DNA of 64,000 nucleotides from Lophium mytilinum (Eukaryota), in assembly GCA_010093605.1 (NCBI GenBank), contig MU004196.1, positions 1,448,606 to 1,512,605 of the forward strand, in the 5' to 3' direction. Under the pieces are notes generated by a model. That model ran no database searches, had not been told where the DNA came from, and was given only the letters and a program-made list of their open reading frames with translations. Within the stretch, counting starts at the first letter, position 1. Every line of letters begins with the position of its first letter. The translations under genes and the position numbers were made by a program. Shown one piece after another: positions 21,243 to 62,041 of this stretch.

Positions 21243-24200
21243 ATGGCCCCGACGTCAGATCTCGTAAGGGACTCGCGGCTGAGGACGCGGTTTCACTCAG
21301 GCGGCTATACACATCACACCTACTACGTCTCCGGGATTACTGCTCGGCAACGCACTGTGAGAAGAGAAGAACGATGGCAACGATGTGCCTCTCTTGGCTC
21401 GGGTGCTTTCGGAATGGTGTGGCTCGAGAAGTTGGTATCGGATGAGGAAGCGAAGGACCGGGCCGTAAAAGAGATCCGAAAGAACTCACATCGATCAAAT
21501 ACTATAGACTACAGCCGAGAGTTAGAAGCTATTGCCAAGTTTTCTCACGAAAAGTACGAGCGTTGCTTCGTGCGTTCCTTCGGCTGGTACGAAAGTGGAG
21601 AAAGCGTCTTCATCGCCATGGAGTACTTCCCGTACGGCGATCTTAATGAGTACATCTCTAGTCCGTTGCCAGAATCGGAAGTCCAGCAAATCACGTTTCA
21701 AATCTTGGAAGGAGTTGCGTTCATGCATGAGAATGGCTTCGCTCATCGCGACTTGAAGCCGACAGTAAGGCGTCCTCTCGTAACAATGATCTCCCTTTAC
21801 TCATCAATGGTGGAATACAGAACATCCTCGTGAAGTCAAGGGGCCCAGACTGGTGGGTTAAGATTGGTGATTTTGGTATCAGTAAACGCGCCGAAGAGGG
21901 ATTGACTGCTTTGCGAACCTTGAACGGCACCCTTGGATTTATGGCCCCTGAGATGCTCGTACAACTCGGTCTTCTTGACATGGAGAACCTGGCTGTTAGC
22001 GATCGGTATACCGTCGCCGTTGATATCTGGTCATTGGGAGAAATCACATTTCGTGCCTTGACCGGAGAATCACCGTTTCCAATTCGGCATCTAGGCCCTT
22101 ACGCCAAGGGAAAGACGAATTTTCCTGTCGAAGTCTTGCAGTCACACAACGTCAGCACTAATGGCTGCAATTTTGTCAAGTCTCTCATGGCTCCATTACC
22201 GAGAGATCGACTAACAGCTAAAGACGCTATTGCACATGATTGGCTTGAGCCACAGCGGCCATCTTCTGCAAGATCATCTTTGGAAATTCAAAGGTAGCAC
22301 CTTTTCCCTCCCTCTTCCTCTTTGTGAGCCGCAATGCTGATAGCCTCACCTTATTGGTAGTTCGGAGCACTTCTTTCTTGATGGTTCCACTTCCCACGGC
22401 CAAGACATCACAGAAGCCTCAGCAGCTTGGAGTGATGTAACCAGCCCAGGACCCACAGTAGCCCCAGTTGCTAGCTTCGAGAACAACGCTGCCTTGGAGC
22501 CCGAAGCACCTCGTGAAACGTCCATTGAAGAGCCGCCAGCACTTCCTGAGGTCCTCGTTCAAGAGACCTCTGGTGTAGTGGGATCGCATTCTTCCGGAGA
22601 CCCAGGTACGCTTTCAGATCTGGTATCACGTGTTGAAGAAACCACTCAAGCCACGGCCCCCATAATCAAACCTCAAGATACACGCGAACAGGTTGTTCAC
22701 AATTCAGGGAACGATGCTACAATCTTAACCCCATACGATCGTAAGAATACCTGAAATTGTTGAGTACCACGCCGTCAAACGCTCACATTTTTCAGACCTC
22801 GAGAATTCTATCACCACCTCCAACAGAGACAAGCATGTGCCAGCGATTAGAGACACCCCTAATCCGGACAAAGAAGAAACTACTATTCTTCACGTCGTTG
22901 CGCATGAACCTTTGCCCGAATCCTCACTTCCAGGTCCGGTTCTCAGACAAGCCAAATCAGATAACACCTATAAGCCAAGAAAACCAAATAAACTCAAAAG
23001 ATATGAGCGAGTCAAACCTGTTACTTGGAGCGATGAGGATGAGTCTGCAAGCAAAGAAATTGAAACCATTATCAGTCCTGAACCCAAAAAGAAGGTTCGA
23101 ACGACGCGGTTTGGGGAATACGAATTAGGACAGACCATTAGCGAGGAAGAGGGGGTAAAGGTGAAAATGGCTTTCCATTCCCAAACCGGAATGCGATACG
23201 TCATTCGGCGCTATCATCGACGCTTCAGGGAATTCCCCAGATCGGAAAGGGTGAAGATCATTCGCGAAGTTGATATCCAAAGAGATCTAGGCCACCCAAA
23301 CGTCCAGCGCTTCCACGAATTGGTTGAGACCGAGATGCACATAGGCCTGGTTCTGGAATACCCTTCTGGAGGCGAACTCTTTGAATACGTCTTGAACCAC
23401 AGATACCTTAGAGACAAACCGGCTCGTAGGTTGTTTGCACAATTGATTTCTGCTGTAGGTTATTTGCACTTGAAAGGGGTTGTGCATCGTAACTTGAAAC
23501 TCGAAACGGTACAGCTCGATAGGTACCTGAACATCATCGTCACTTGTTTCGATCTGGCAAAGACTTTCGACCCTACGAATACGACTAGGCTGCAAGAGGT
23601 GTCTGAGTACAGCTTACCAGTACGCGATCTCAAAGATATTGACAACAATGCAAGGTTCGGGGGCGACCTTATGCGTACATCTTATACGTCTTGTGGATCT
23701 CCTTGCTACGCCGCGCCAGAGTTGGTCGTATCAGATAGACTGTACACAGGTCGAAAAGCAGATATATGGAGTTGCGGAGTTATATTGGTAGGCCCACGCC
23801 GTATCAACCTTGTTCGTCCAGTCAATGTTGCTCACATAGATACAGTACGCAATGCTGGCTGGACATCTACCATTCGACGACGATCCAGCAAATCCCGACG
23901 GCGACAACATCAACCTTTTGTACAAGTACATTGTATCAACGCCTGTAACTTTCCCTGAGTATGTAACTCCTCACGCCAGGGACCTCCTTCGACGAATTCT
24001 GGTGCCGGACCCGAGTAAACGTAGCGATATGTACGAAATTGCGCGACATAGTTGGCTGAGCGAGTATGCTCACGTTGTTTCTCACATAACGGACAAAAAC
24101 ACACCGAAAGGTATTATAGGCACGACGATCCCGTCCCGTGCAGGTAAGAAGATGCCCGGTATGTACCGTTCCGTACCCTCGCAAGGTATTTATGCTAATC

Positions 24201-25838
24201 GATACACATAGAGGCTGGCTCTACACCTGCTCCACTCCCATCATACCCAGACTCTGCCAATTCTGCCAGGAATGCGCATAGTGCTGCTACTTTAGCCCAT
24301 CGACCATCCACGAAGGCTGCACCCCTAGGAAGCTCGAATGGATTGGGGTCTCCAGCTATGGAAGCGGCTCGAATCCAGCATGACAAGTCAATTCCGAGGT
24401 CAATGTACACCGAGCATACTCCCATTGATATGGAAACTAATGAGGCAAATCACCAAAATGCGCTTCGCGCTTCAGCATTATTAATGGCGCAGAAAATGTA
24501 CAATACTCAACAGAAGCACATCAACAATGCTAAAGCCGAAAGAGCTGCTTCGCATGGACAATCAGATAAGGACATGAAAGAACAAGAGATGCAGATCATC
24601 CACGCGCAACAAGCAGCACAAAGACTTGCCGCAGAGCATCTGGCGAGAATCCCAGTTGACAACAAGGCTGCGTATCGCAACTACTGGGCTACGAGTATAA
24701 GCGACGCTCCAAACTCTCCATGCGCGGGAGAAGGCATAGGCACGACGATCCCGTCCCGTAAAGGTCAGAAGATGCCCGGTATATACTGTGCCGTACCCTC
24801 GCAAGGTATTTATGCTAATCAATACACATAGAGGAAACAGCGGAGAGAGATGATACAACACCCAAGGTCTCAAAAAGGCGATCGGTCCAACCCGAGTATG
24901 TTGATGCGCCGCCAAGAGATACGCGAAAACGACCAGTAGTAGACGACATCATGTTCGAGTCGGAAGACGATTTGGCGCCGCTTAAGCGCTGGATCATCCC
25001 GAAGCTTGAAGGAGTGTGAGTTCTCCTACGGCGGACTATATAGAAACGTACTAACTAGATATACAGCTCAGATGCACATTCTGAGATCTTGGCCGACTAC
25101 ATTCTCGCTCTTGTCCGCAGCAGTGGCAGCGACGAGTACATCCGTAACAGCTGTCTTGACAAATTGGGCACCTTCCTCCATAGTAGTAAGACGCTCGCCG
25201 AAGGCACTAGTCGTGAGAGGGAAGCTAACCTAGCCTTAGATACCGTTGGATTCGTTGACGAGATGCTCACGGTTGTTCGCGAGAAATCTTATCGGCCTGA
25301 TTACGTTCCTCCTTCAACAGAATTTACTGCTGCACCGAGATCGAAATCGAACCCATATCAACGTGCGAGGGTGTATAACCAAGAAAAATTTACTGCTGCA
25401 CCGATATCGCAGCCATATTATGACGAGGATAACAAGGAGAATGGGCGCCCAGGACTGCTGGAGAGGAGGGTTAGCAGGAGAGTCGTGCCGGGCCTCCCGA
25501 GGCCGTTGACGTTCAAGAGGATGAACTCCGAGAAGAGGGATAGGCTTTTACCGGTAGACACGGGCAGTGAGGAACGCAGGGCGACGTCTATGGACATGAG
25601 GGGCAGTGAGCCGAAGACACTAACCCCGCCGGCCGTGTCAATTCCATCGCGCTCGATGCCTGAGATTCAGAGTCCGTTCCAGGAAGCACCAGGGAGACCT
25701 ATTGGAGGAGGAGATGATCACAAAAATCCGTCAAAGCAAAGAACAGGCCCGGATGACGGATCTAGCGGTACTGCGAGGAAACTCATGGACTTCTTCCGTC
25801 GCGGAGGGAAAAATGCACCAGATGAATTCAATTCTTAG
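21243..25838 (+). CDS. Tandem kinase-pseudokinase protein with integrated Eis1/Seg1-like, PWI-like and CorA-like segments (about 1372 aa, 9 exons)
   Basis: Exons 21243-21764, 21821-22293, 22361-22740, 22796-23787, 23846-24143, 24212-24763, 24832-25015, 25067-25185, 25240-25838 join in frame via GT-AG introns (4119 nt). Kinase 1 has GSGAFG/AVK/HRDLKP/DFG/APE; kinase 2 is Kin4-like but degenerate. Confidence 0.8.
24115..24834 (+). repeat. Direct duplication of about 100 bp (exon end + whole 68-nt intron) at about 24115-24214 and 24735-24834
   Basis: ataggcacgacgatcccgtcccgt..aggt(a/c)agaagatgcccggtat..ccgtaccctcgcaaggtatttatgctaatc(g/a)atacacatagagg occurs twice. Confidence 0.9.
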
Positions 25839-25916
25839 TTGCATGCGCCCAAGCCGCTCAACCAACAACGTCAGACCGAACGCCGCATGCAGAGTAGTGT
25901 GGCAAAGTGACAGTAT

Positions 25917-26153
25917 TACAGTCCTAGGCCATAAGTCTGGGCATACGGACTTACTATAGTTCGGCTCCAACCTGCTCACTTAACACCACTGCGAGGGGTA
26001 GCCTGGCCGCTGAGCAGGCAACCAGTCAAGAGGTGGTCTAATCTGCACTGCTTGAAGCTTGAAGCTTGACCTCGCCTTCAAGTCTTCGAAACCTTGTGCG
26101 GATTCCCCAAGCAGTGGTGAAGCAGTGTGCCAGACTTGTGGCCTGCCACTGTA
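25917..26153 (-). mobile_element. MITE family A, about 235 bp, TA-CAGT TIRs (Tc1/mariner-type)
   Basis: TACAGTCCTAGGCCATAAGTCTGGGCA ... TGCCAGACTTGTGGCCTGCCACTGTA; internal similarity to about 9 other copies. Confidence 0.85.
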
Positions 26154-26370
26154 CACTATGCTTCGATCGGCAGGCTGCAATGAAGCCAACAGCGCTGCGG
26201 CGTCTCGAGAAATGGGAATCCCTGTACACCGCGCCTCAAAACAACTAGGCACCAGCCAATCACACCCCTGCACCAACATCGCCCGATCTACGGCACAGCC
26301 TTATGCATATAAAAAGGTCTAAAACCACCGAATTACCTAATCCTCTTTTCTCCTTCAAAACTCCGCATTC

Positions 26371-28095
26371 ATGAAACCCATCATCCCTCTACACTTTATC
26401 CTTCTCCTTTCTTCCTTAAACCTCCTCGCCATGGCCGCAAACCCCCAAACCCCGATCCTGGACCCCGACCACGACCCCAACCCCGACACCCACGACCCGT
26501 ACGAAGGCCTTCCGCCCCTCGCCGCCAACATGACCTGGACCGCATTCCCCTTCAACGACCTCTGGCTCTCTGACACCGCGTGGTACGACTCGCTCGGAAA
26601 TTCTCAAGTCGTCGTACGCCGCATCTTCTCCTCGTTTTCCAAAAGCGAGCAAGTCGCCGCCGCCCTCACCCTCTTCGAAGAGTTCCCAGCTCGCGGCCGC
26701 GACATCATGTTCGATGCCGCGGTCAAGGGCAAAGCGTGGGTGATCTCCGCGCTGCTCGCTGCGGGCGTCACGCCGCAGCCTGCCCCGGGCACAGAAGACG
26801 ACGTGACGCTGGTGTGTCTGCATGCGGCGGCGCATAATGGGCAGCTAGAGGCCGTGAAGGTGATTGTGGAGGAAGGGGGTGCGGAGGTGGATGCGAAGGA
26901 TGAGCTGGGGGGGACGGCGCTGATGCGGGCGTGTTTTGGGGGGCAGGTGGAGGTGGTGGCGTGGTTGCTGGAGCGGGGGGCGGATGCGGGGCGGCGCCAG
27001 GATGATTCGGAGGAGCGGACGCCTGGGACGGGGGCGTTGGAGTTTGCGGCAGGGAAGGGTTGTGTGGAGTGTGTTAAGCTACTTTTGGAGTGGAGGAAGA
27101 GCGGAGGTGCGGTGGGTCGGGGGGGCGCGGAGGTGACGCCCCTGGCATTGGAGGCCGGGGCGCACTCGGGGAGCTTGGAGATGGTGAGGTTGTTGGTCGG
27201 GGAGAGGGGATGGCCGACGGACGAGGTTGATGAGAGGGGGGTTTGGAAAGGAGAGAGGCTGAGTGGGGAGCAGCGGGGCGAGGTCCTGCAGATGCTGACG
27301 CGGGTGACGACCAACGTTGATCTTCTCGAGTTCCTCGTGAGCTACCTGGCCAAACCGGATGCTAGTGGAAACTTCGAATACCTCGACTTGCCGCAGGATG
27401 TCAGAGAGAAAATCCTGGACCTCTTGTTTGGCATAACGAAGAACACCGAGGTTGTTAAACTCTTTTGGAACGTCACATTCAGCTCTCCGGAGCTGACGAC
27501 GATTGAATACGATGGGCAGCAGATTCCGAAAATCGAGTACATCAACGATATGATCCACGAAGCCGCCAAGACGGACACTGTTGAGACCGCCAAGTTCTTT
27601 TTCGCAATGCCAGGCGCCGATGTCAATACCCCCGGGCTCAAGAAAGTCGGCCACCTATACCGAGCAGCTATCGATGAGAAGCTAGATATGGTCCGCTACC
27701 TCCTAGAGAACCACAAGCCAGACCTCCACCAAGGGAACGGGCTCTACGCAAACGGAGGAACCGCGCTCTTTGGCGCTGTGCTGTCAGGCAACGCGGAAAT
27801 TGTGAAGCTGATTCTTCAGCATGGTGGTCCGCTCGAGTCTCCGATCCACGAAAGCATCAAATCGAAGGAGCCGAAGAAAGTCGTCGTGAAGTGTGTCCAA
27901 ACTTTTAGGGCGCCGGTGACGATGGAAGTTCATCCTGGAGATGATTCCTTGCCGACAGAGCAAGGCACGAAGTTTGTTGTGTTAGAGTTGGATGAGAACG
28001 ATGCCGAGTGGTTGGATAAAGTGGAGATCCGCAAGTCGGATGAAGAATTGAAGAAAGATGATAGAGGGGAACGAGAATTGAAGCCGCGAGGATAG
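26371..28095 (+). CDS. Ankyrin-repeat protein (possible hydrophobic N-terminal leader)
   Basis: 574-aa ORF; 'CLHAAAHNGQLEAVK', 'GGTALMRAC..G..EVVAWLL', 'GGTALFGAVLSGNAEIVKLIL'. Confidence 0.88.
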   Translation: MKPIIPLHFILLLSSLNLLAMAANPQTPILDPDHDPNPDTHDPYEGLPPLAANMTWTAFPFNDLWLSDTAWYDSLGNSQVVVRRIFSSFSKSEQVAAALTLFEEFPARGRDIMFDAAVKGKAWVISALLAAGVTPQPAPGTEDDVTLVCLHAAAHNGQLEAVKVIVEEGGAEVDAKDELGGTALMRACFGGQVEVVAWLLERGADAGRRQDDSEERTPGTGALEFAAGKGCVECVKLLLEWRKSGGAVGRGGAEVTPLALEAGAHSGSLEMVRLLVGERGWPTDEVDERGVWKGERLSGEQRGEVLQMLTRVTTNVDLLEFLVSYLAKPDASGNFEYLDLPQDVREKILDLLFGITKNTEVVKLFWNVTFSSPELTTIEYDGQQIPKIEYINDMIHEAAKTDTVETAKFFFAMPGADVNTPGLKKVGHLYRAAIDEKLDMVRYLLENHKPDLHQGNGLYANGGTALFGAVLSGNAEIVKLILQHGGPLESPIHESIKSKEPKKVVVKCVQTFRAPVTMEVHPGDDSLPTEQGTKFVVLELDENDAEWLDKVEIRKSDEELKKDDRGERELKPRG

Positions 28096-28357
28096 AGACG
28101 TCGTGTACCGAGTAGATTAAGAAACTCGCTTCTTTTATTCTTTTGATATCGTCAGAAGGGTTTCAGCGCCCAGCTAGCCCCGCGAGCTTTGGATATGCGG
28201 ATTCGCCTACGTAACGGCAAAACAGGCTGGCTCGAAACCTTCAATTATGCTCTGTTTTATGCTACGTGGGGGCGTACATCGTTCCTGGATTCTTCATAAC
28301 GGACCAGAGCACCTTAGACAGTGGCAAGCAAGAGTGCAAACTGATGTCCAGGTACTG

Positions 28358-28574
28358 TACATTGAAAGGTCACAAGCCTGGGCACACTGGCATGCCGCTG
28401 CTTGGGGTACCCCCACAGGGGCTCGAAGGCTTAAGAGCGATGTTAAGCTTCAAGCAGTGTAGATTAGACTACCTCTCAACTGATTGCCTGCTCAGCAGCC
28501 AGGCTAGCCCCGACAGTAGTGTTGAGTGGGCAAGTTGGAGCCGAGTATGCCCAGACATGTGGCCTAGAACTACA
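28358..28574 (+). mobile_element. MITE family A copy
   Basis: TIR-like ends (cacaagcctgggcacac ... tgcccagacatgtggcctagaactaca) and conserved core (gcagtgtagattagactacctct, gcctgctcagcagccaggct). Confidence 0.82.
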
Positions 28575-33069: not shown

Positions 33070-33259
33070 GCAGCTTAGCTCCAACTTGCCCACTTAACAC
33101 CATGTGGGGTGTATCCTGGCTGCTGAGCAGCCAATTAGTGAAGAGGTAGTCAAATGTGCACCGCTTGAACCTCAACATGACCTTTGAATCTTCGAAATCT
33201 GATAGGGATACCCTAAACTGTGTCGATCCGGTGTCCCAAACTTGTGCCCTGTCACTGTA
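33070..33259 (-). mobile_element. MITE family A copy (one end degenerate)
   Basis: ctccaacttgcccacttaacacca...ggctgctgagcagcc...cccaaacttgtgccctgtcactgta. Confidence 0.75.
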
Positions 33260-35681: not shown

Positions 35682-38394
35682 ATGGACTTCCTATGGGCCC
35701 TCCTGAGCCTCTGCATCTTCCTCGCCTCATCAGCCGTGCTCCGCAGAGCGCTAGAAAAGAGGATCCTATACCGATACTCTCCACTCCGGCCAGAACCTAG
35801 CAGCATCCGCCTACTACGCCTTCTACCGCACGCCGACGAGACCGCCGTCATTCAATGCGAGCTCTTCGACTACTCGCTACAAAGCTCAAGCCAACGAACG
35901 CACCAGTATGAAGCCCTGTCTTATGTATGGGGTAGTCCGGAGGGGAAGTTGCCTATCATGATAGGCGGATGTGCGTTCGACGTTACGGTTAATCTCCATG
36001 CGGCGCTTTTAAGGATGAGGAATCATGCTATGGAGCGAGTGTTGTGGGTAGATGCGATTTGCATTGATCAGGACAATCTAAAAGAGAAGGAGGATCAGAT
36101 TCAGTTCATGGCAGAGATTTTTGGACAGGCGAGACAGGTTGTTGTTTGGCTTGGAGAGGCGGCAGAGGATAGTGATTTGGCGCTTGAGCAGATACGCGTT
36201 ATTGGGAGCAGAGTGTCTGGAGATTATCCCTTAGAGCTAGCGGATACGTGGAGCGACAACGACGAGTCAGGAGATTCTCTAGACGACGACGGAGGGTCGG
36301 TAGATCCTCTAAACGACGACCCAATGCAGCAAGCGATTCTTGCGCTGTTGGAACGGCCGTGGTTTCGGCGCATTTGGGTAAGAGTATATATATTCCGCAA
36401 AGCTCGTACAGTCTGCTAAAGGGTTAAATTAGATACTTCAGGAGGTTGCCGCAGCTCGACACATCTTGGTCATGTGTGGTGCCGCAGAGATCGACGGACA
36501 CGGCTTCTGCTTGGGCGTGGATTTGCTGGAGGGCATCTTCGGAACCCGCGCAGACTTACATAGTCTGATCCGTTCGGTGACTTACTTGATGAAGGGGGCG
36601 ATATTCAGGCCTGTTATGAGCAAGGCAAGCAGTACTTCGCGAGCCATATGTCCACTAGGCGAGCTGATGGATATGTACCATTCGCACGAGGCTACCAAGC
36701 GCCATGATAAGGTGTATGCGTTGCTTGGTATGAGCTCTGATGATCACAGCAAAGCAAATCTATCGCCAAACTACGGAGTTCCATGGGAGGACCTCTTGCA
36801 GCGACTAGTCAAGTTTCTTCTCCCTGGGACGATTTCCGTGGAGACTTGGGGCGATCAGGGGATCGCTTCAATCAGGATTAAGGGCTGCATGCTGGGTTAT
36901 GTGTCCTCTACAGAAAGGAGTGTTATTTCTGATGGCAGAAGGAGTGTAGAGGTAGTTTGCAAGAACATATCGGGAGAACTTGGAGATATCAAAGTGTCAA
37001 AGGCCAACTGGAATCTCAAACTCTCGGCAACACCCGTTCAAAAAGGAGATCTCATCTGCCTTCTTCAGGGAGCTTCAAAGCCTACTATCATAAGAGTGTG
37101 TAAAGACTGTTTTACCATCATCATCATGATTACAGTCTCTCCTCCGGAAATCATACAAAGTAAGTGGAACGAGTTTGATGCCAATTGGCCAAAGAATTTG
37201 GAGTCCAAAAAATTGTCCGCATGCGATTTTCTCCTCGTTTGGGACTGGGAAACCCCTCTGCTAGGATTGCAAGATCTAGGAAAATCCGATACCTTGATCC
37301 AGACAGATAAGTGGGTATCACAGCCCCCAAATACGATGCTAGAGGGCCACTTGGACCAACTAGCTAGAACATGGAGTGTTGCACGGATATTGGACGACTT
37401 GGGGAAGCAAGAAAAGGCAGAAGAGAGGCTTCAAGAAGTTGCAGAGGGCATTGCAACAGAAATTGGGCAAGAAGGTTTGTATCCACACACATTACTAAAT
37501 TATCAAAGCAAGACGCTGATTTTGAGAATTCCAGATAACAACTACGACGCCGTAAGGAACATAATACGGGAGAGGAATAATATTGATCTATACTTTGGGG
37601 ACAGTCAATACAGAAAGACGATGCTATTAAGAGCGGCAGGAAGCGGGCGCAAGGGTGTTGTTAAGCTTCTGCTTGAGACGGGCAAGGTCAATGTTGATGC
37701 AATGAAGACGGCGCTGCTACGGGCGGCATCTTACGGGCGCGAGACTATTGTGAAGGTGCTGCTTTTGACAGACAAGTTCACCTTCGCTGATGAGGGGCGG
37801 GTGCTGAGAACCGCGGCGTTTTGGGGGCGGGAGGCCGTTATTAAGCTACTGCTTGAGACGAGCGAAGTTAATCTTGATTCTAAGGATAATGAGGGACAGA
37901 CGGCGCTATCACTGGCGGCGAGTTCGGGGCAGACGGCGGTTGTTAAGCTGCTGCTTGAGACAGGCAAGGTTGATATCGANNNNNNNNNNNNNNNNNNNNN
38001 NNNNGGACAGACGGCGCTATCACTGGCGGCGAGTTCGGGGCAGACGGCGGTTGTTAAGCTGCTGCTTGAGACAGGCAAGGTTGATATCGACTTGAAGGAT
38101 AATGACGGACGGACGGCGCTATCATGGGCGGCAGAAAGGGGCCCCGAGGCTGTTGTTAAGCTGCTACTTGGGACCGGCAAAGTTGACGTTAATTCAAAGG
38201 GTACTAATAGGAGGACGGCGCTATTGTTTGCGGTAGAAGGGGTACACACAGCCGTTGTCAAGCTGCTGCTTGAGACAGGTAAGGTTGATGTTGAACTCGA
38301 GGATAATGACGGACGGACGGCGCTAGTTAGGGCGAAAGAGAAGGGACATGAGGCCGTGGTACAGCTGCTGGAGTCGTATCGTAAGCTCTTTTAG
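35682..38394 (+). CDS. HET domain + ankyrin-repeat protein (NLR-like effector-repeat architecture), contains assembly gap
   Basis: HET: 'IRLLRL', 'YEALSYVWG', 'LWVDAICIDQ', 'RPWFRRIW|ILQE' (intron 36379-36432), 'DKVYALLGM'; C-terminal repeats 'GQTALSLAA..G..AVVKLLLETGKVD'. Confidence 0.9.
37980..38004. other. Assembly gap (25 N) within ankyrin repeats
   Basis: Run of n characters. Confidence 0.99.
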
Positions 38395-42988: not shown

Positions 42989-45007
42989 CTACATCAACCC
43001 CCCCAACACCACCTTCCCCACCCCCGCCATCTCCCCCCTCTGCCCCACCCGACTCGCATCCTCAAACTCCCTCACCACGCCCGCCAGAATAATCTTCCTA
43101 ACCCTCGCATCCGCCTTCGCGAACAAATCGCCCACCACGGGCGAGCAGCTCTCCGGCCCACTCACCAAGCTCATCATCTTCGTGTACGCATCAATCAGCA
43201 CATCGCACAGCGTCGCGAACGTCTCGAAGAAGTCTGGGTCGAACGGCAGCGAAGGGGTGAGGAGGTGCGTGTACGTTTCATTCGGCAGCAGGTCATCACC
43301 CGTGGTTATAGGTAAGGAGGAGGAGGTGGTGGAATCCGGGGGCGTGGAGGCGTTGGAGATGCTGTGGTCGAGAGCGGGGAAGCCCATGTCTGTGGCGGCG
43401 GAGCTGCGGCGGCCTTTGGAGGAGCCGACGCCGACGTGGGTTGCTTTGCGGAACATTTGCGGGATGCGGCCGCGCGAGAGGGAGGAGGGGGTGGCGCCGT
43501 CCGGGGGGTGGATGGATTGGTAGGATTCGAATTCGATGAGGAGAGCGTTGAGGGCGCGGAGGTAGTCCGAAGGGGAGTGTGGGTGCAGGTCGAGGATGGT
43601 GGGACTTAAGGTGGCAATAAAGTTAGCAAATCTTTCAAAACTCGAGCAAGGAAACTAATAGTAATGACAGGTTATGCTGCGTAAAACACTCCTTCAGGGA
43701 ATTCCAAGACACCACTGTCTACTTTGCCCACTTAACACCACTGCTGGGGGGTAGCCTGACTGCTGATCAGGCAATCAGTTAAGAGGCAGTCTAATTTGCA
43801 CTGCTTGAACTTTGACATCGCCCTTTAGTCTTCAAAACCTGTGAGGGCACCCCAAGCAGTGGCGTACCAGTGGACAGTGGTTGCCTCGGAATACTCTCTG
43901 AGTAGATTTTCAAACAGACATATTGCTGGGAAATTTGTTATCTATATTGGGGGCTTACTTACAGGGAGAAGCCGAGGAGGAGGTAGTTTGTGGCGCGGCG
44001 GGCGAGTTTGGGTGGGGAGAAGTAGGAGAGGCGTGCGAGGTCGGGTTTAGAGAAGAGGAGGGTGTTGAACCAGTATATGCGGCCTTCGTGGCTGTGGAAA
44101 TGCGTTAGTGTGGGATTTAGGGTCGGAGGGTATTGAGATATTTGAGCCAGGGGATCGCGGATTGCGAGGCCGAGCGGTGGAGGAAATTTGGATTGGGGAG
44201 GATTGAGGAGAGAATGCGGCGGTGTATTGGGTGAATGAGAGGTGAAATTTATGAATATTGAAGATTTCAAACATACGCTTTCCGAAGATAGTCCAAGGTA
44301 GATATCCTCTTCGACGCCATCTCGTGTATATGCTGGAATACCACACTCGGATTATTTGACCCATTGCCCGCAGGCCCAATCTGTATAGGAGCCGGGGGTC
44401 CAAGACTTCCATAACTCTGCGCAAAGGTCTGCTGTTGCTGCTGCAGCTGCTTCTGCGAGGCCGGGTATCGTAGGGGGACAGCCATGCCGAAGGGTGTCTT
44501 GGGCTGGTCCACGGCAGACAATGGCGATTTTGAGTATGGTTGTCCCCCCCCTAGACCCACCGCTAGCGAGTCTAACGCCTTCACGTTTTCGGCACTCTTT
44601 TGCTTTCCCCTCGAGAAGGTTGATATCGACAGAGCTGGGCGCGAGGCATTGGACGCAGGAGCCTTCTCCGGCGAAAGGGACAGGGTGGTTGCCAGAGTGG
44701 CGGTCGAGGGCGTCTTCCGGTGGGAAGACGTAGAGCCCGAAGAGCGCGGCGAGGTGGTGCGCAGCGAGGCGGACCGTCGCAGCGTCGAGCCGAGCTCCGT
44801 CACCGAGCTGGAGATGCTGTGACGCGACGACGACTTGCGATGGCGGCGGGGCGGTGGTGGTGAAGCAATTGGGAACTGCGGCACTGGCGGCGGGCTCTCT
44901 GCGGTCTGCGGGGGCGAGGTGGTGTATTTGGCGGTGGGCGTTTGATTCCCTTTGGTGCGAAAAGCCCTGGCGAACAGTCCGCTGGGCTGGGACGGGGTCG
45001 TGGACAT
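42989..45007 (-). CDS. Conserved fungal hypothetical protein, 3 exons
   Basis: Spliced 'KRISTLDYLRKA|HEGRIYWFNT...LLLGFSL|PTILDL...YLRALNALLIEFE...LPFDPDFFETFATLCDVLIDAY'; S/P-rich N-terminus. Confidence 0.82.
43720..43875 (-). mobile_element. Truncated MITE family A copy inside intron 2 of the 42989-45007 gene
   Basis: ttgcccacttaacaccactg...gtagcctgactgctgatcaggcaatcagttaagaggcagtctaatttgcactgcttgaa...ccccaagcagtggcgtaccagtg. Confidence 0.8.
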
Positions 45008-49757: not shown

Positions 49758-49987
49758 TACAGCGACTGGCCACGAGTGTGTGTACACTAGCTGCCACTGC
49801 TAGTGGTACCCTTATGAGTTTTCTGTACGATAGGTACAATGTCAAATACTGTGTAGCGTACTCTTAGCTACCTTTTGACTGAATAGCTTTGTGACAATGA
49901 AGCCGCCCTCGACAGCGGTATCCAGCTTCTAAAATCGGCGCTCCAGCAGTAGCATGTATGTGCCCAGACTTATGGCTTAGTACTGTA
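49758..49987 (+). mobile_element. MITE family A copy (diverged)
   Basis: TACAGCGACTGGCCACGAG ... GTGCCCAGACTTATGGCTTAGTACTGTA. Confidence 0.75.
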
Positions 49988-50130
49988 TTAGGCCTCGCAG
50001 ATGATCTCCTTCGGCCTTCCACTAGCATATCATTCAACGCTTGGTTTACGCCCACAAACTCCCTGCCTGCTTGCTTCTATTATAGAAGTAGTGCCTCGTT
50101 CAGGCCTGATCTGCAGCTATCTGGGCCGTC

Positions 50131-51063: not shown

Positions 51064-51278
51064 TACAGGAGCTTCCGCCCTTCGTTCGCCATTGTTAGGG
51101 GTACCTCCCAGGAATTCAAAGTACCCCTAATGGCAAGTATTGACCAGTGCAAACTAGACTGCCTCTTGACTAGATAGCCTCTAAGCAGCTAGGCTACCCC
51201 TTACAGTGGTGGCGAGGGAGCAAGATTCGGGCCAAGCAGTGGCAAATCCGTATGCTCAGACCTATGATCTAGTACTGT
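51064..51278 (+). mobile_element. MITE family A copy
   Basis: cagtgcaaactagactgcctcttgact...taggctaccccttacagtggtg...tatgctcagacctatgatctagtactgt. Confidence 0.72.
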
Positions 51279-56102: not shown

Positions 56103-56332
56103 TACAGTGACAAGCCACAAGTCTGGTCACACTGGTACGCCACTGATTGGGGTACCCCAACAAAGTTTTGAGGACTTAAAGGTGATTTTAACCTTCAAGC
56201 AGTGTGTATTAGACTGCCTCTTAAGCACTTGCCTGCTCAGCAGCCAGGCTACCCGAACAGTGGTGTTGAGTTGGCAAATTTGAGCCGAGATATAATGAGT
56301 CCATGTGCCCAGATTTGTGGCCTAGGACTGTG
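56103..56332 (+). mobile_element. MITE family A copy (well preserved)
   Basis: TACAGTGACAAGCCACAAGTCTGGTCACAC ... GTGCCCAGATTTGTGGCCTAGGACTGTG. Confidence 0.85.
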
Positions 56333-61808: not shown

Positions 61809-62041
61809 TACAGTGATAGGCCGTAAGTCTAAGCACACTGGTTCGCCACTGCTAGGGGCACCTCCCAACGGTTTGAGAAGATTTATAGGCAATTACCAGT
61901 CTTAAGCCGTGCAGATTAGACTGCCTCTTGACTAGTTAGCTGCTTAGCGGCTAGACTTACTCCCTACAATGGTGTCAAGTAAGCAACATTGAAGCCAAGC
62001 GGTGACAAAAACGTGGGCCCAGACTTATGGCGTAGTACTTA
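61809..62041 (+). mobile_element. MITE family A copy abutting the stop codon of the 62044-62568 gene
   Basis: TACAGTGATAGGCCGTAAGTCTAAGCACAC ... GGGCCCAGACTTATGGCGTAGTACTTA. Confidence 0.8.

Follow-up and report, generated by a model that had tools for sequence, protein, structure and literature searches.

Introduction

Plant Pack-MULEs and Helitrons build chimeric genes from captured gene fragments. Introns are also gained, and in gains of the Daphnia type the direct repeat that flanks the new sequence has been read as the fill-in of a staggered break; the duplication of pre-existing introns is treated as a class apart from the model of tandem duplication of AGGT-containing sequence (PMC3443670). 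Most exon and intron origins are inferred from old, eroded cases, and the gain of an exon and the gain of an intron are usually separate questions. Here, we describe a locus in the fungus Lophium mytilinum that links the two and in which spliced RNA shows that the product is used. It is a gene at 21243-25838 of a 64,000-nt stretch of DNA (the window; contig MU004196.1 of GenBank assembly GCA_010093605.1, positions 1,448,606 to 1,512,605), where a cassette exon derived from the gene for the eisosome protein Eis1 lies between two copies of an intron-containing direct repeat. All positions below are counted from the first letter of the window, and all features of the gene lie on its forward strand.

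An Intron-Containing Direct Repeat Brackets the Cassette

Two copies of a 99-nt direct repeat are found in the gene, copy 1 at 24116-24214 and copy 2 at 24736-24834, lying 620 nt apart from start to start and flanking 521 nt. A first-pass annotation made from the sequence had reported a unit of ~100 bp occurring twice with few mismatches, and the alignment agrees closely, as the copies are identical at 92/99 bases with no insertions or deletions. The seven mismatches fall at 24140, 24141, 24146, 24163, 24167, 24170, and 24201 of copy 1. Self-blastn of the repeat gave an E value of 3e-37, the alignment score was reached by 0 of 300 shuffles, and in a global alignment both edges proved sharp, the similarity breaking off there. 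No third copy was found within the 64-kb window, nor was any other repeat of this kind; the other repeat family there is an ankyrin-repeat array.

Both copies share one layout, in which the codons GTTIPSR(A/K)G are followed by a short intron, whose GCTAAT branch site precedes the TAG acceptor by 13 nt, and then by AGG. In copy 1, these parts are the KIN4-derived codons GTTIPSRAGKKMP, a 53-nt intron used in RNA, and the AGG of the next exon. The true KIN4 protein of L. mytilinum (P0148) has NTTVPSRE at the place where the repeat has GTTIPSR, so the repeat is host sequence and was not brought along with the insert.

To this picture we can add contigs from three public sequencing runs of two studies, aligned to 22300-26000 at 80% likeness; X1 and X2 are DNA runs from one sample, and X3 is a run from a different study. 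Among the DNA contigs, those without a single difference from the window extend over 22300-24261 (copy 1 and the first 47 nt of the insert), 24234-24414, and 24388-25252 (insert, copy 2, and downstream sequence), thus reproducing both junctions between the insert and the repeat copies. The copy-specific exon parts are carried with 0 differences by the RNA contigs of the separate study. The duplication is genuine and not an artefact of assembly; the RNA run is the sole independent support for it, the DNA runs possibly being the source of the assembly itself.

The Insert Comes from the Eis1 Gene of the Same Genome

The entire piece between the repeat copies (24215-24735, 521 nt) derives from Eis1. 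When the cassette translation (24214-24762) was used in a homologue search, 36/36 proteins carried the Eisosome1 family PF12757, and the best was P0001, the 839-residue Eis1 of L. mytilinum (78% identity, E 7.5e-68). BLASTP aligned the cassette with P0001 residues 233-403 (78% identity, E 3e-89), the match beginning at cassette residue 1, and the eisosome-like character that had been proposed for the exon is thereby confirmed. An exhaustive search of cluster representatives gave 160 at E <= 0.001, 80 of them at <= 1e-10, and in the best 150 of the 160 the matched stretch was mostly at about residues 80-440, an Eis1-like position. No Pfam match was found in the cassette translation at E up to 1, since the captured piece lies upstream of the Eisosome1 domain, which occupies residues 462-582 of P0001. 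The host gene is Eis1-derived in one exon, yet it is no member of the Eis1 family, the domain being absent from the cassette. Beyond “AAYRNY” the protein match stops; the DNA still encodes Eis1 in another frame (KRRSKLSMRGRR), to about residue 420.

The X1 and X2 contigs also hold a second, diverged sequence that matches the insert alone, with ~10% divergence (53/~525 nt). It differs from the window at 15 positions over 24234-24414, at 20 over 24388-24565, and at 18 plus one gap over 24570-24735. These contigs turn into loose ends exactly at 24214 and 24735, and translation of the ends yields the Eis1 residues found on either side of the piece in P0001 (…AVSESARRKR ahead of it and RAASDPEEAD… behind it); the codons rebuilt from the listed differences equal P0001 at 83/84 residues. 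The parent Eis1 gene is thus present in the same genome, and the insert spans 24215-24735 to the letter. The comparison with the genome's own Eis1 that the first-pass annotation had called for therefore yielded a parent copy, at ~90% DNA identity. Both DNA and RNA contigs of the parent continue as Eis1 coding sequence on the two sides of the piece, and the donor piece, which comes from inside uninterrupted Eis1 coding sequence, is neither an exon nor a domain. Microhomology with the parent at the junctions amounts to 1 nt (G at 24214) and 0 nt, and the insert shows neither terminal inverted repeats nor poly(A).

Relative to the parent, the insert shows two losses. The larger is a net loss of 39 nt at 24566-24569, where the parent has 43 letters and the window 4; it appears as a 13-residue gap in the BLASTP alignment and corresponds to 13 codons found in Eis1 orthologues. 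The other is a loss of 1 nt at 24686-24687, the parent having an extra C behind 24686, and owing to it the Eis1 DNA from 24687 up to 24735 is read in a non-Eis1 frame. When the parent's extra letter was restored in silico, the exon became 553 nt long and the Eis1 frame hit a stop within copy 2. The cassette thus owes its present reading frame to the 1-nt loss, whether this occurred at insertion or later.

The Cassette Is Included in Mature RNA

The X3 contigs have 0 differences from the window and lack six GT..AG segments (51-68 nt) that are kept in the DNA contigs. X3 is accordingly spliced RNA, a label that had been a guess beforehand. One of its contigs (record 15) joins 22740|22796, 23786|23845, and 24157(8)|24211(2) and extends 51 nt into the cassette, and another (record 17) starts at 24401 inside the cassette and joins 24763|24832 (side 186), 25015|25067, and 25185|25240. 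The two cassette joints (24158|24212 and 24763|24832) were present in 0 of the 2 DNA runs. With RNA joints on both sides, the cassette is included in mature RNA as an exon of 552 nt (24212-24763; 184 codons, open frame, phase 1 on both sides), which is just the exon that the repeat copies had been said to flank.

The introns on either side were found to be functional, as had been predicted, though only one has the predicted form. A 68-nt phase-1 intron had been assigned to each copy of the repeat. This holds for the intron downstream of the cassette (24764-24831; GTCAGA ... GCTAAT ... TAG). Upstream, the RNA uses a 53-nt intron of the same phase (24159-24211; GTATGT ... GCTAAT ... TAG), and the GTAAGA donor at 24144 that would give the 68-nt version is unused in the RNA contig. 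The mismatch at 24163/24783 is position +5 of the donor, GTATGT in copy 1 and GTATAT in copy 2, which points to a G-to-A change in copy 2 after the duplication and, with it, an in-frame shift of the splice site by 15 nt upstream, where GTCAGA is used. Of the two introns, the downstream one is the duplicate and hence the new gain.

As a symmetric exon (phase 1-1, 552 nt), the cassette had been expected to be skippable without a frameshift, and in silico skipping, by 24158|24832 or by 24143|24832, kept the frame both ways. No joint from 24158 or 24143 to 24832 was found among the contigs listed, and contigs drop rare forms.

Divergence of the Cassette from Its Parent

Cassette and parent were compared, without polarisation, over the 84 codons with a full list of differences. 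These codons hold 16.7 synonymous and 10.3 non-synonymous differences, giving a synonymous divergence (dS) of ~0.34, a non-synonymous divergence (dN) of 0.056, and a dN/dS of 0.17. Third codon positions account for 18 of the 27 differences, and 18/27 are A or T in the window against G or C in the parent. Both the dN/dS and the third-position excess suggest that the cassette is not decaying freely, and its protein piece has probably been kept by selection. At the same time, the piece has lost codon bias and some conserved residues. When six outgroup Eis1 proteins were used for reference, the 24 amino-acid differences over 158 residues divided into 10 derived in the cassette, 3 derived in the parent, and 11 unclear. 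As three of the changes are parent-derived, enough time has passed since the event for the parent to have diverged as well. The high identity of the introns had been taken at first pass as a sign of a recent event, but with the repeat copies 7% apart, the insert ~10% from its parent, and dS at ~0.34, the insertion is not recent in any strong sense.

Repeat-induced point (RIP)-type mutation was considered as a cause of the divergence and rejected: a CpA/TpG context accompanies just 1/6 of the C-to-T and 3/9 of the G-to-A changes, and there is no excess of CpA-to-TpA. The insert-parent pattern is a third-position drift from GC to AT.

Origin of the Structure

The arrangement can be written as A-X-A, with A standing for host sequence and X for DNA that is foreign from its first base to its last, which means that the target was duplicated as X entered. 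Since A contains a whole intron, the insert would have been born as an exon between two introns. The explanation that we favor, and hold to be probable, is thus a single insertion of Eis1 DNA with a 99-bp intron-spanning target duplication, giving an exon and an intron in one step. A piece of the 561-nt class of the genome's own Eis1 coding DNA would have been inserted into a KIN4-derived pseudokinase gene, with 99 bp of target, spanning a complete short intron, duplicated on either side of it. The likeliest route would be a break with 99-nt staggered ends, followed by fill-in of the overhangs and end-joining of the foreign fragment; the near-zero microhomology of the junctions (1 nt and 0 nt) is in keeping with blunt end-joining. 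Each copy of the target would have come with a donor, a branch site, and an acceptor, so that the foreign DNA would at once have been an internal exon between working introns, and the old mRNA could still have been made by skipping the cassette. The losses of 39 nt and 1 nt, later or concurrent, would then have left a cassette of 552 nt that is read in frame into the exons downstream, and the +5 G-to-A change in the donor of the second copy would have moved splicing 15 nt upstream to GTCAGA.

Several points weigh against this account. The repeats reported for break-repair insertions are of a few bp (PMC3443670), and a stagger of 99 nt is far longer. The DNA runs that reproduce the structure may be those from which the assembly was made, and the three runs yielded neither a pre-insertion allele nor any strain or relative without the cassette. 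The value of dN/dS rests on 84 unpolarised codons, and the 10/24 differences that are cassette-derived at conserved Eis1 sites indicate that constraint is at least relaxed. Finally, the intron part of the repeat differs at 5/68 positions against ~17/61 synonymous sites between cassette and parent (Fisher p 0.004), although under a single event and neutrality the intron and synonymous divergences should be alike; the overall divergences of 7/99 for the repeat and 53/525 for insert and parent do not differ significantly (p 0.46). The mismatch in rate could reflect splicing constraint, copy-to-copy gene conversion, or a fast GC-to-AT drift at third positions that were formerly codon-optimised. 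Alternatively, the donor could have been a locus other than the Eis1 of today, or there could have been two separate steps.

The main rival to a single insertion with target duplication is template switching of the type known as fork stalling and template switching or microhomology-mediated break-induced replication (FoSTeS/MMBIR), in which a strand leaves at the end of A, copies ~560 nt of Eis1, and re-enters 99 nt back. Two such switches would be expected to give an insertion flanked by a duplicated departure region. The copy also has losses of 1 nt and 39 nt compared with its parent, and error-prone break-induced synthesis makes small losses of such kind, but both could just as well be mutations of a later date. 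A small A-X-A (a 23-nt repeat at 25321 and 25387 around 43 nt) and two further foreign pieces are found in this gene as well, as though such events came easily to the region; the two further pieces, however, have no flanking duplication above chance, and the junctions of the cassette show microhomology of just 1 nt and 0 nt where a few bases are usual. We see template switching as possible, if on the whole unlikely. A two-step origin, in which a 99-bp tandem duplication of the intron segment was followed by the insertion of Eis1 DNA at the A|A joint, would explain by differing ages why the copies are closer (7%) than the synonymous sites of insert and parent (proportion of synonymous differences, pS, 0.27). 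Moreover, tandem duplication is a demonstrated route of intron gain (PMC3443670). Such an origin is nevertheless unparsimonious, as a second independent event must strike the exact joint of the duplication, and the Eis1 homology fills the space between the copies to the base. It also demands a duplication older than the insertion, yet the duplication looks younger. For these reasons we judge it improbable.

Direct repeats of target sequence around an insert recall a mobile element, and a dispersed repeat of ~240 nt lies 80 nt past the stop of the gene, so capture by a Pack-MULE or Helitron-like element, or retrocopying mediated by a long interspersed nuclear element (LINE) with a long target-site duplication, was also weighed. 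No element sequence is found between the copies, the Eis1 homology reaching both edges, and terminal inverted repeats and poly(A) are both absent. The piece is moreover internal to the Eis1 coding sequence (residues 233 to ~420 of 839) and not its 3′ end, and no transposase known to us produces a target duplication of 99 bp. Near-blunt junctions, the absence of inverted termini and of poly(A), and the internal position of the piece in the coding sequence make a transposon or retrocopy unlikely, and our own estimate puts it as very improbable. As for a duplication or chimera created by the assembly, the DNA runs that reproduce the structure might be those that the assembly was built from. Both junctions are nevertheless bridged by separate contigs with 0 differences, and spliced contigs of the other study join the exon of copy 1 to the cassette, and the cassette, via the exon of copy 2, to the downstream exon, which leaves such an artefact scarcely credible. 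An insertion of Eis1 DNA with duplication of its target stays the reading that we prefer.

The Host Gene Is a Patchwork

The host gene has nine exons, 1377 codons, and eight GT-AG introns, from the ATG at 21243 to the stop codon at 25836-25838, and its frame is open across the cassette along all 1377 codons. Six of the introns were seen as RNA joints, that at 22294-22360 was placed from a contig that starts at 22359, and that at 21765-21820 from the sequence alone. The N-terminal protein kinase domain (21384-22293; Pfam PF00069, E 9.4e-22) has HRDLKPTN and DFG and appears intact by its motifs. Beyond a linker follows a KIN4-like domain (23149-24058; PF00069, E 1.6e-30 and 2.5e-05), for which the alignment with P0148 gives HRN for HRD, CFD for DFG, and VIR for VAIK, and which is a predicted pseudokinase. 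This domain is 55-58% identical to fungal KIN4 proteins, including P0148 of L. mytilinum, and many of the named top matches (49-58% identity) bear the label KIN4 or CAMK/CAMKL/KIN4 in their sources. No close orthologue of the patchwork or of the pseudokinase was found among proteins of 619-2000 amino acids, the best match having 58% identity. After the cassette come a short KIN4-like stretch with a weak match to P0148 (E 0.32) and, at 25740-25838, a KIN4-type C-terminal tail (…MDFFRRGGK…) with the stop codon, which was recognised by local alignment to the C-terminus of P0148 (E 9e-05). In all, this patchwork gene draws on at least four sources, and the foreign pieces in it number three or more.

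A few further observations were made in the host gene. The 67-nt intron at 22294-22360 (GTAGCA ... TAG) would remove the stop of the upstream kinase open reading frame and join it in frame to the pseudokinase, giving a protein with two kinase domains. An RNA contig matches the window from 22359 and reaches 3370 nt further upstream, the aligned stretch having begun at 22300. The likeness to KIN4 is uneven, with 10 mismatches in 78 residues to P0148 in the exon of the C-lobe (23845-24080) and a catalytic N-lobe (23149-23787) that is far more diverged; this pattern could reflect gene conversion or unequal constraint. The depth of DNA contigs is raised at 23788-24035, as if the true KIN4 matched there at >= 80%. 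In the linker, the summed contig depth is raised over 22424-22671 in 3/3 runs, which suggests another locus matching at >= 80%, and this stretch may be a further captured piece.

Other Captured Pieces and Nearby Repeats

A second captured piece (24945-25313) contains the introns 25016-25066 and 25186-25239, both supported by RNA joints. DNA contigs of the same genome align with 24945-25252 without a gap, differ from it at 36 of 308 nt, and show a loose end at 25313, and as both introns are present in this diverged second copy, the piece is a genomic copy. It may resemble the N-terminus of RNA-binding proteins of the RBM26/Rmn1 type. In looking for its parent, the protein atlas gave weak unrelated rows, the PDB nothing better than E 0.57, and Pfam nothing, and a homologue search with 25068-25838 returned just the other kinase family that matches at 25425-25714.

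This last match is the third captured piece (25425-25714), which corresponds to the N-terminal region of another kinase family, of ~1000-1250 amino acids (P0302, 75% identity; P0305, 59% identity). A contig matches 25425-25621 with 8 differences and has a loose end at 25714, and “SMDMRG…” belongs to this piece, not to KIN4. No flanking duplication above chance was found at the second or the third piece, the scores being reached by 200/300 and 70/300 shuffles, respectively.

In the same part of the gene, the RNA-supported intron 25186-25239 is 54 nt long, a multiple of 3, and has no in-frame stop, so its retention would add 18 residues. The tail of the gene also holds a direct repeat of 23 nt (25321-25343 and 25387-25409, 22/23 identical) around 43 nt, the small A-X-A referred to above.

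The dispersed repeat of ~240 nt that starts 80 nt past the stop of the patchwork gene is at 25918-26158. It has seven further matches in the window, five of them >= 135 nt, in both orientations and with 72-80% identity, at 56103-56331, 28353-28571, 43725-43872, 33078-33259, 61809-62039, 51145-51278, and 49961-49990 (the last 30 nt at 90%). The depth of DNA contigs is ~3000 at this repeat against ~158 for the gene, and it looks like a miniature inverted-repeat transposable element (MITE) or a short interspersed nuclear element (SINE). Two of its copies form a 100-nt inverted pair (25961-26060 and 28445-28544, 86% complementary) around an ankyrin-repeat gene at 26341-28095 (Pfam Ank families). 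The pair could stem from two independent insertions or could be the ends of a larger element carrying that gene. Elsewhere in the window, an ankyrin-type array (37610-38369, units of ~90-111 nt) contains 25 N at 37980-38004, and the units that flank the gap are identical to the letter, which suggests that the assembly collapsed the repeat or left it unresolved.

Significance and Comparison with Known Systems

The footprint at this locus is readable to the base, from the donor gene, the limits of the piece, and the duplicated target to the near-blunt junctions, the frame-restoring loss, and the shift of the donor site. It shows that, when the target duplication includes an intron, foreign coding DNA can serve as a proper exon from the outset. 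It is a single locus in a non-model fungus, and its mechanism is inferred. With at least four sources, the patchwork gene is a natural system for gene birth by fragment capture. One could go further and regard the locus as a serial collector, in which a pseudokinase scaffold repeatedly took into its disordered tail pieces of unrelated genes of the same genome (from Eis1, from the N-terminal region of another kinase, and a third with introns), all now in frame and transcribed, and the intron-spanning duplication at a break as a general, undescribed one-step route to exon plus intron in intron-poor fungi, an idea that we offer as speculative and rather doubtful. If it were true, the route would need no pre-existing introns in the donor gene. 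Should such footprints recur across the genome, exon and intron gain would become measurable through the lengths of target duplications, the types of junction, and their ages.

As in classical exon shuffling, a foreign coding module is now a symmetric phase 1-1 exon that lies between introns and is spliced in frame, and to this extent the first-pass description of the locus as an exon-shuffling footprint was apt. In other respects the locus departs from it. The donor piece was not an intron-bounded exon but was cut from continuous Eis1 coding sequence, and on the recipient side both breakpoints, 24116 and 24214, fall in exons and not in an intron, 43 nt before and 3 nt after the 53-nt intron, the former 28 nt before the unused GTAAGA at 24144. 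With a donor piece that is no exon and breakpoints outside introns, this is not classical shuffling by intronic recombination, and, unlike there, the second intron was made by the event itself.

On the side of introns, the case is a gain by duplication of a pre-existing intron, in which duplicated gene sequence yields an extra functional intron (PMC3443670). In contrast to the tandem genomic duplication of the AGGT model, the copies are 620 nt apart from start to start with 521 nt of foreign DNA between them, and the new intron reproduces an existing one in full rather than stemming from exon sequence between duplicated AGGT sites. The foreign DNA, the flanking target repeat, and the near-blunt junctions are shared with insertions from double-strand break repair, that is, with intron gains of the Daphnia type (PMC3443670; see also PMC3020277 and PMC4202315). 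Unlike in those gains, the repeat is of 99 nt and not of a few bp, it contains an intron, and the insert becomes an exon and not an intron. With Pack-MULE and Helitron chimeras the locus has in common that one transcribed gene is a patchwork of pieces from unrelated genes of the same genome; it differs in having no transposon ends around the pieces and in that the host is a fungus. In the literature search, as far as the parts of the sources that it opened extend, there was no description of this locus, nor of an intron-spanning target duplication around a captured exon. What the L. mytilinum gene presents is exon gain by capture of DNA coupled to intron gain through an intron-spanning duplication of the target, a new combination of events that are each of a known kind.

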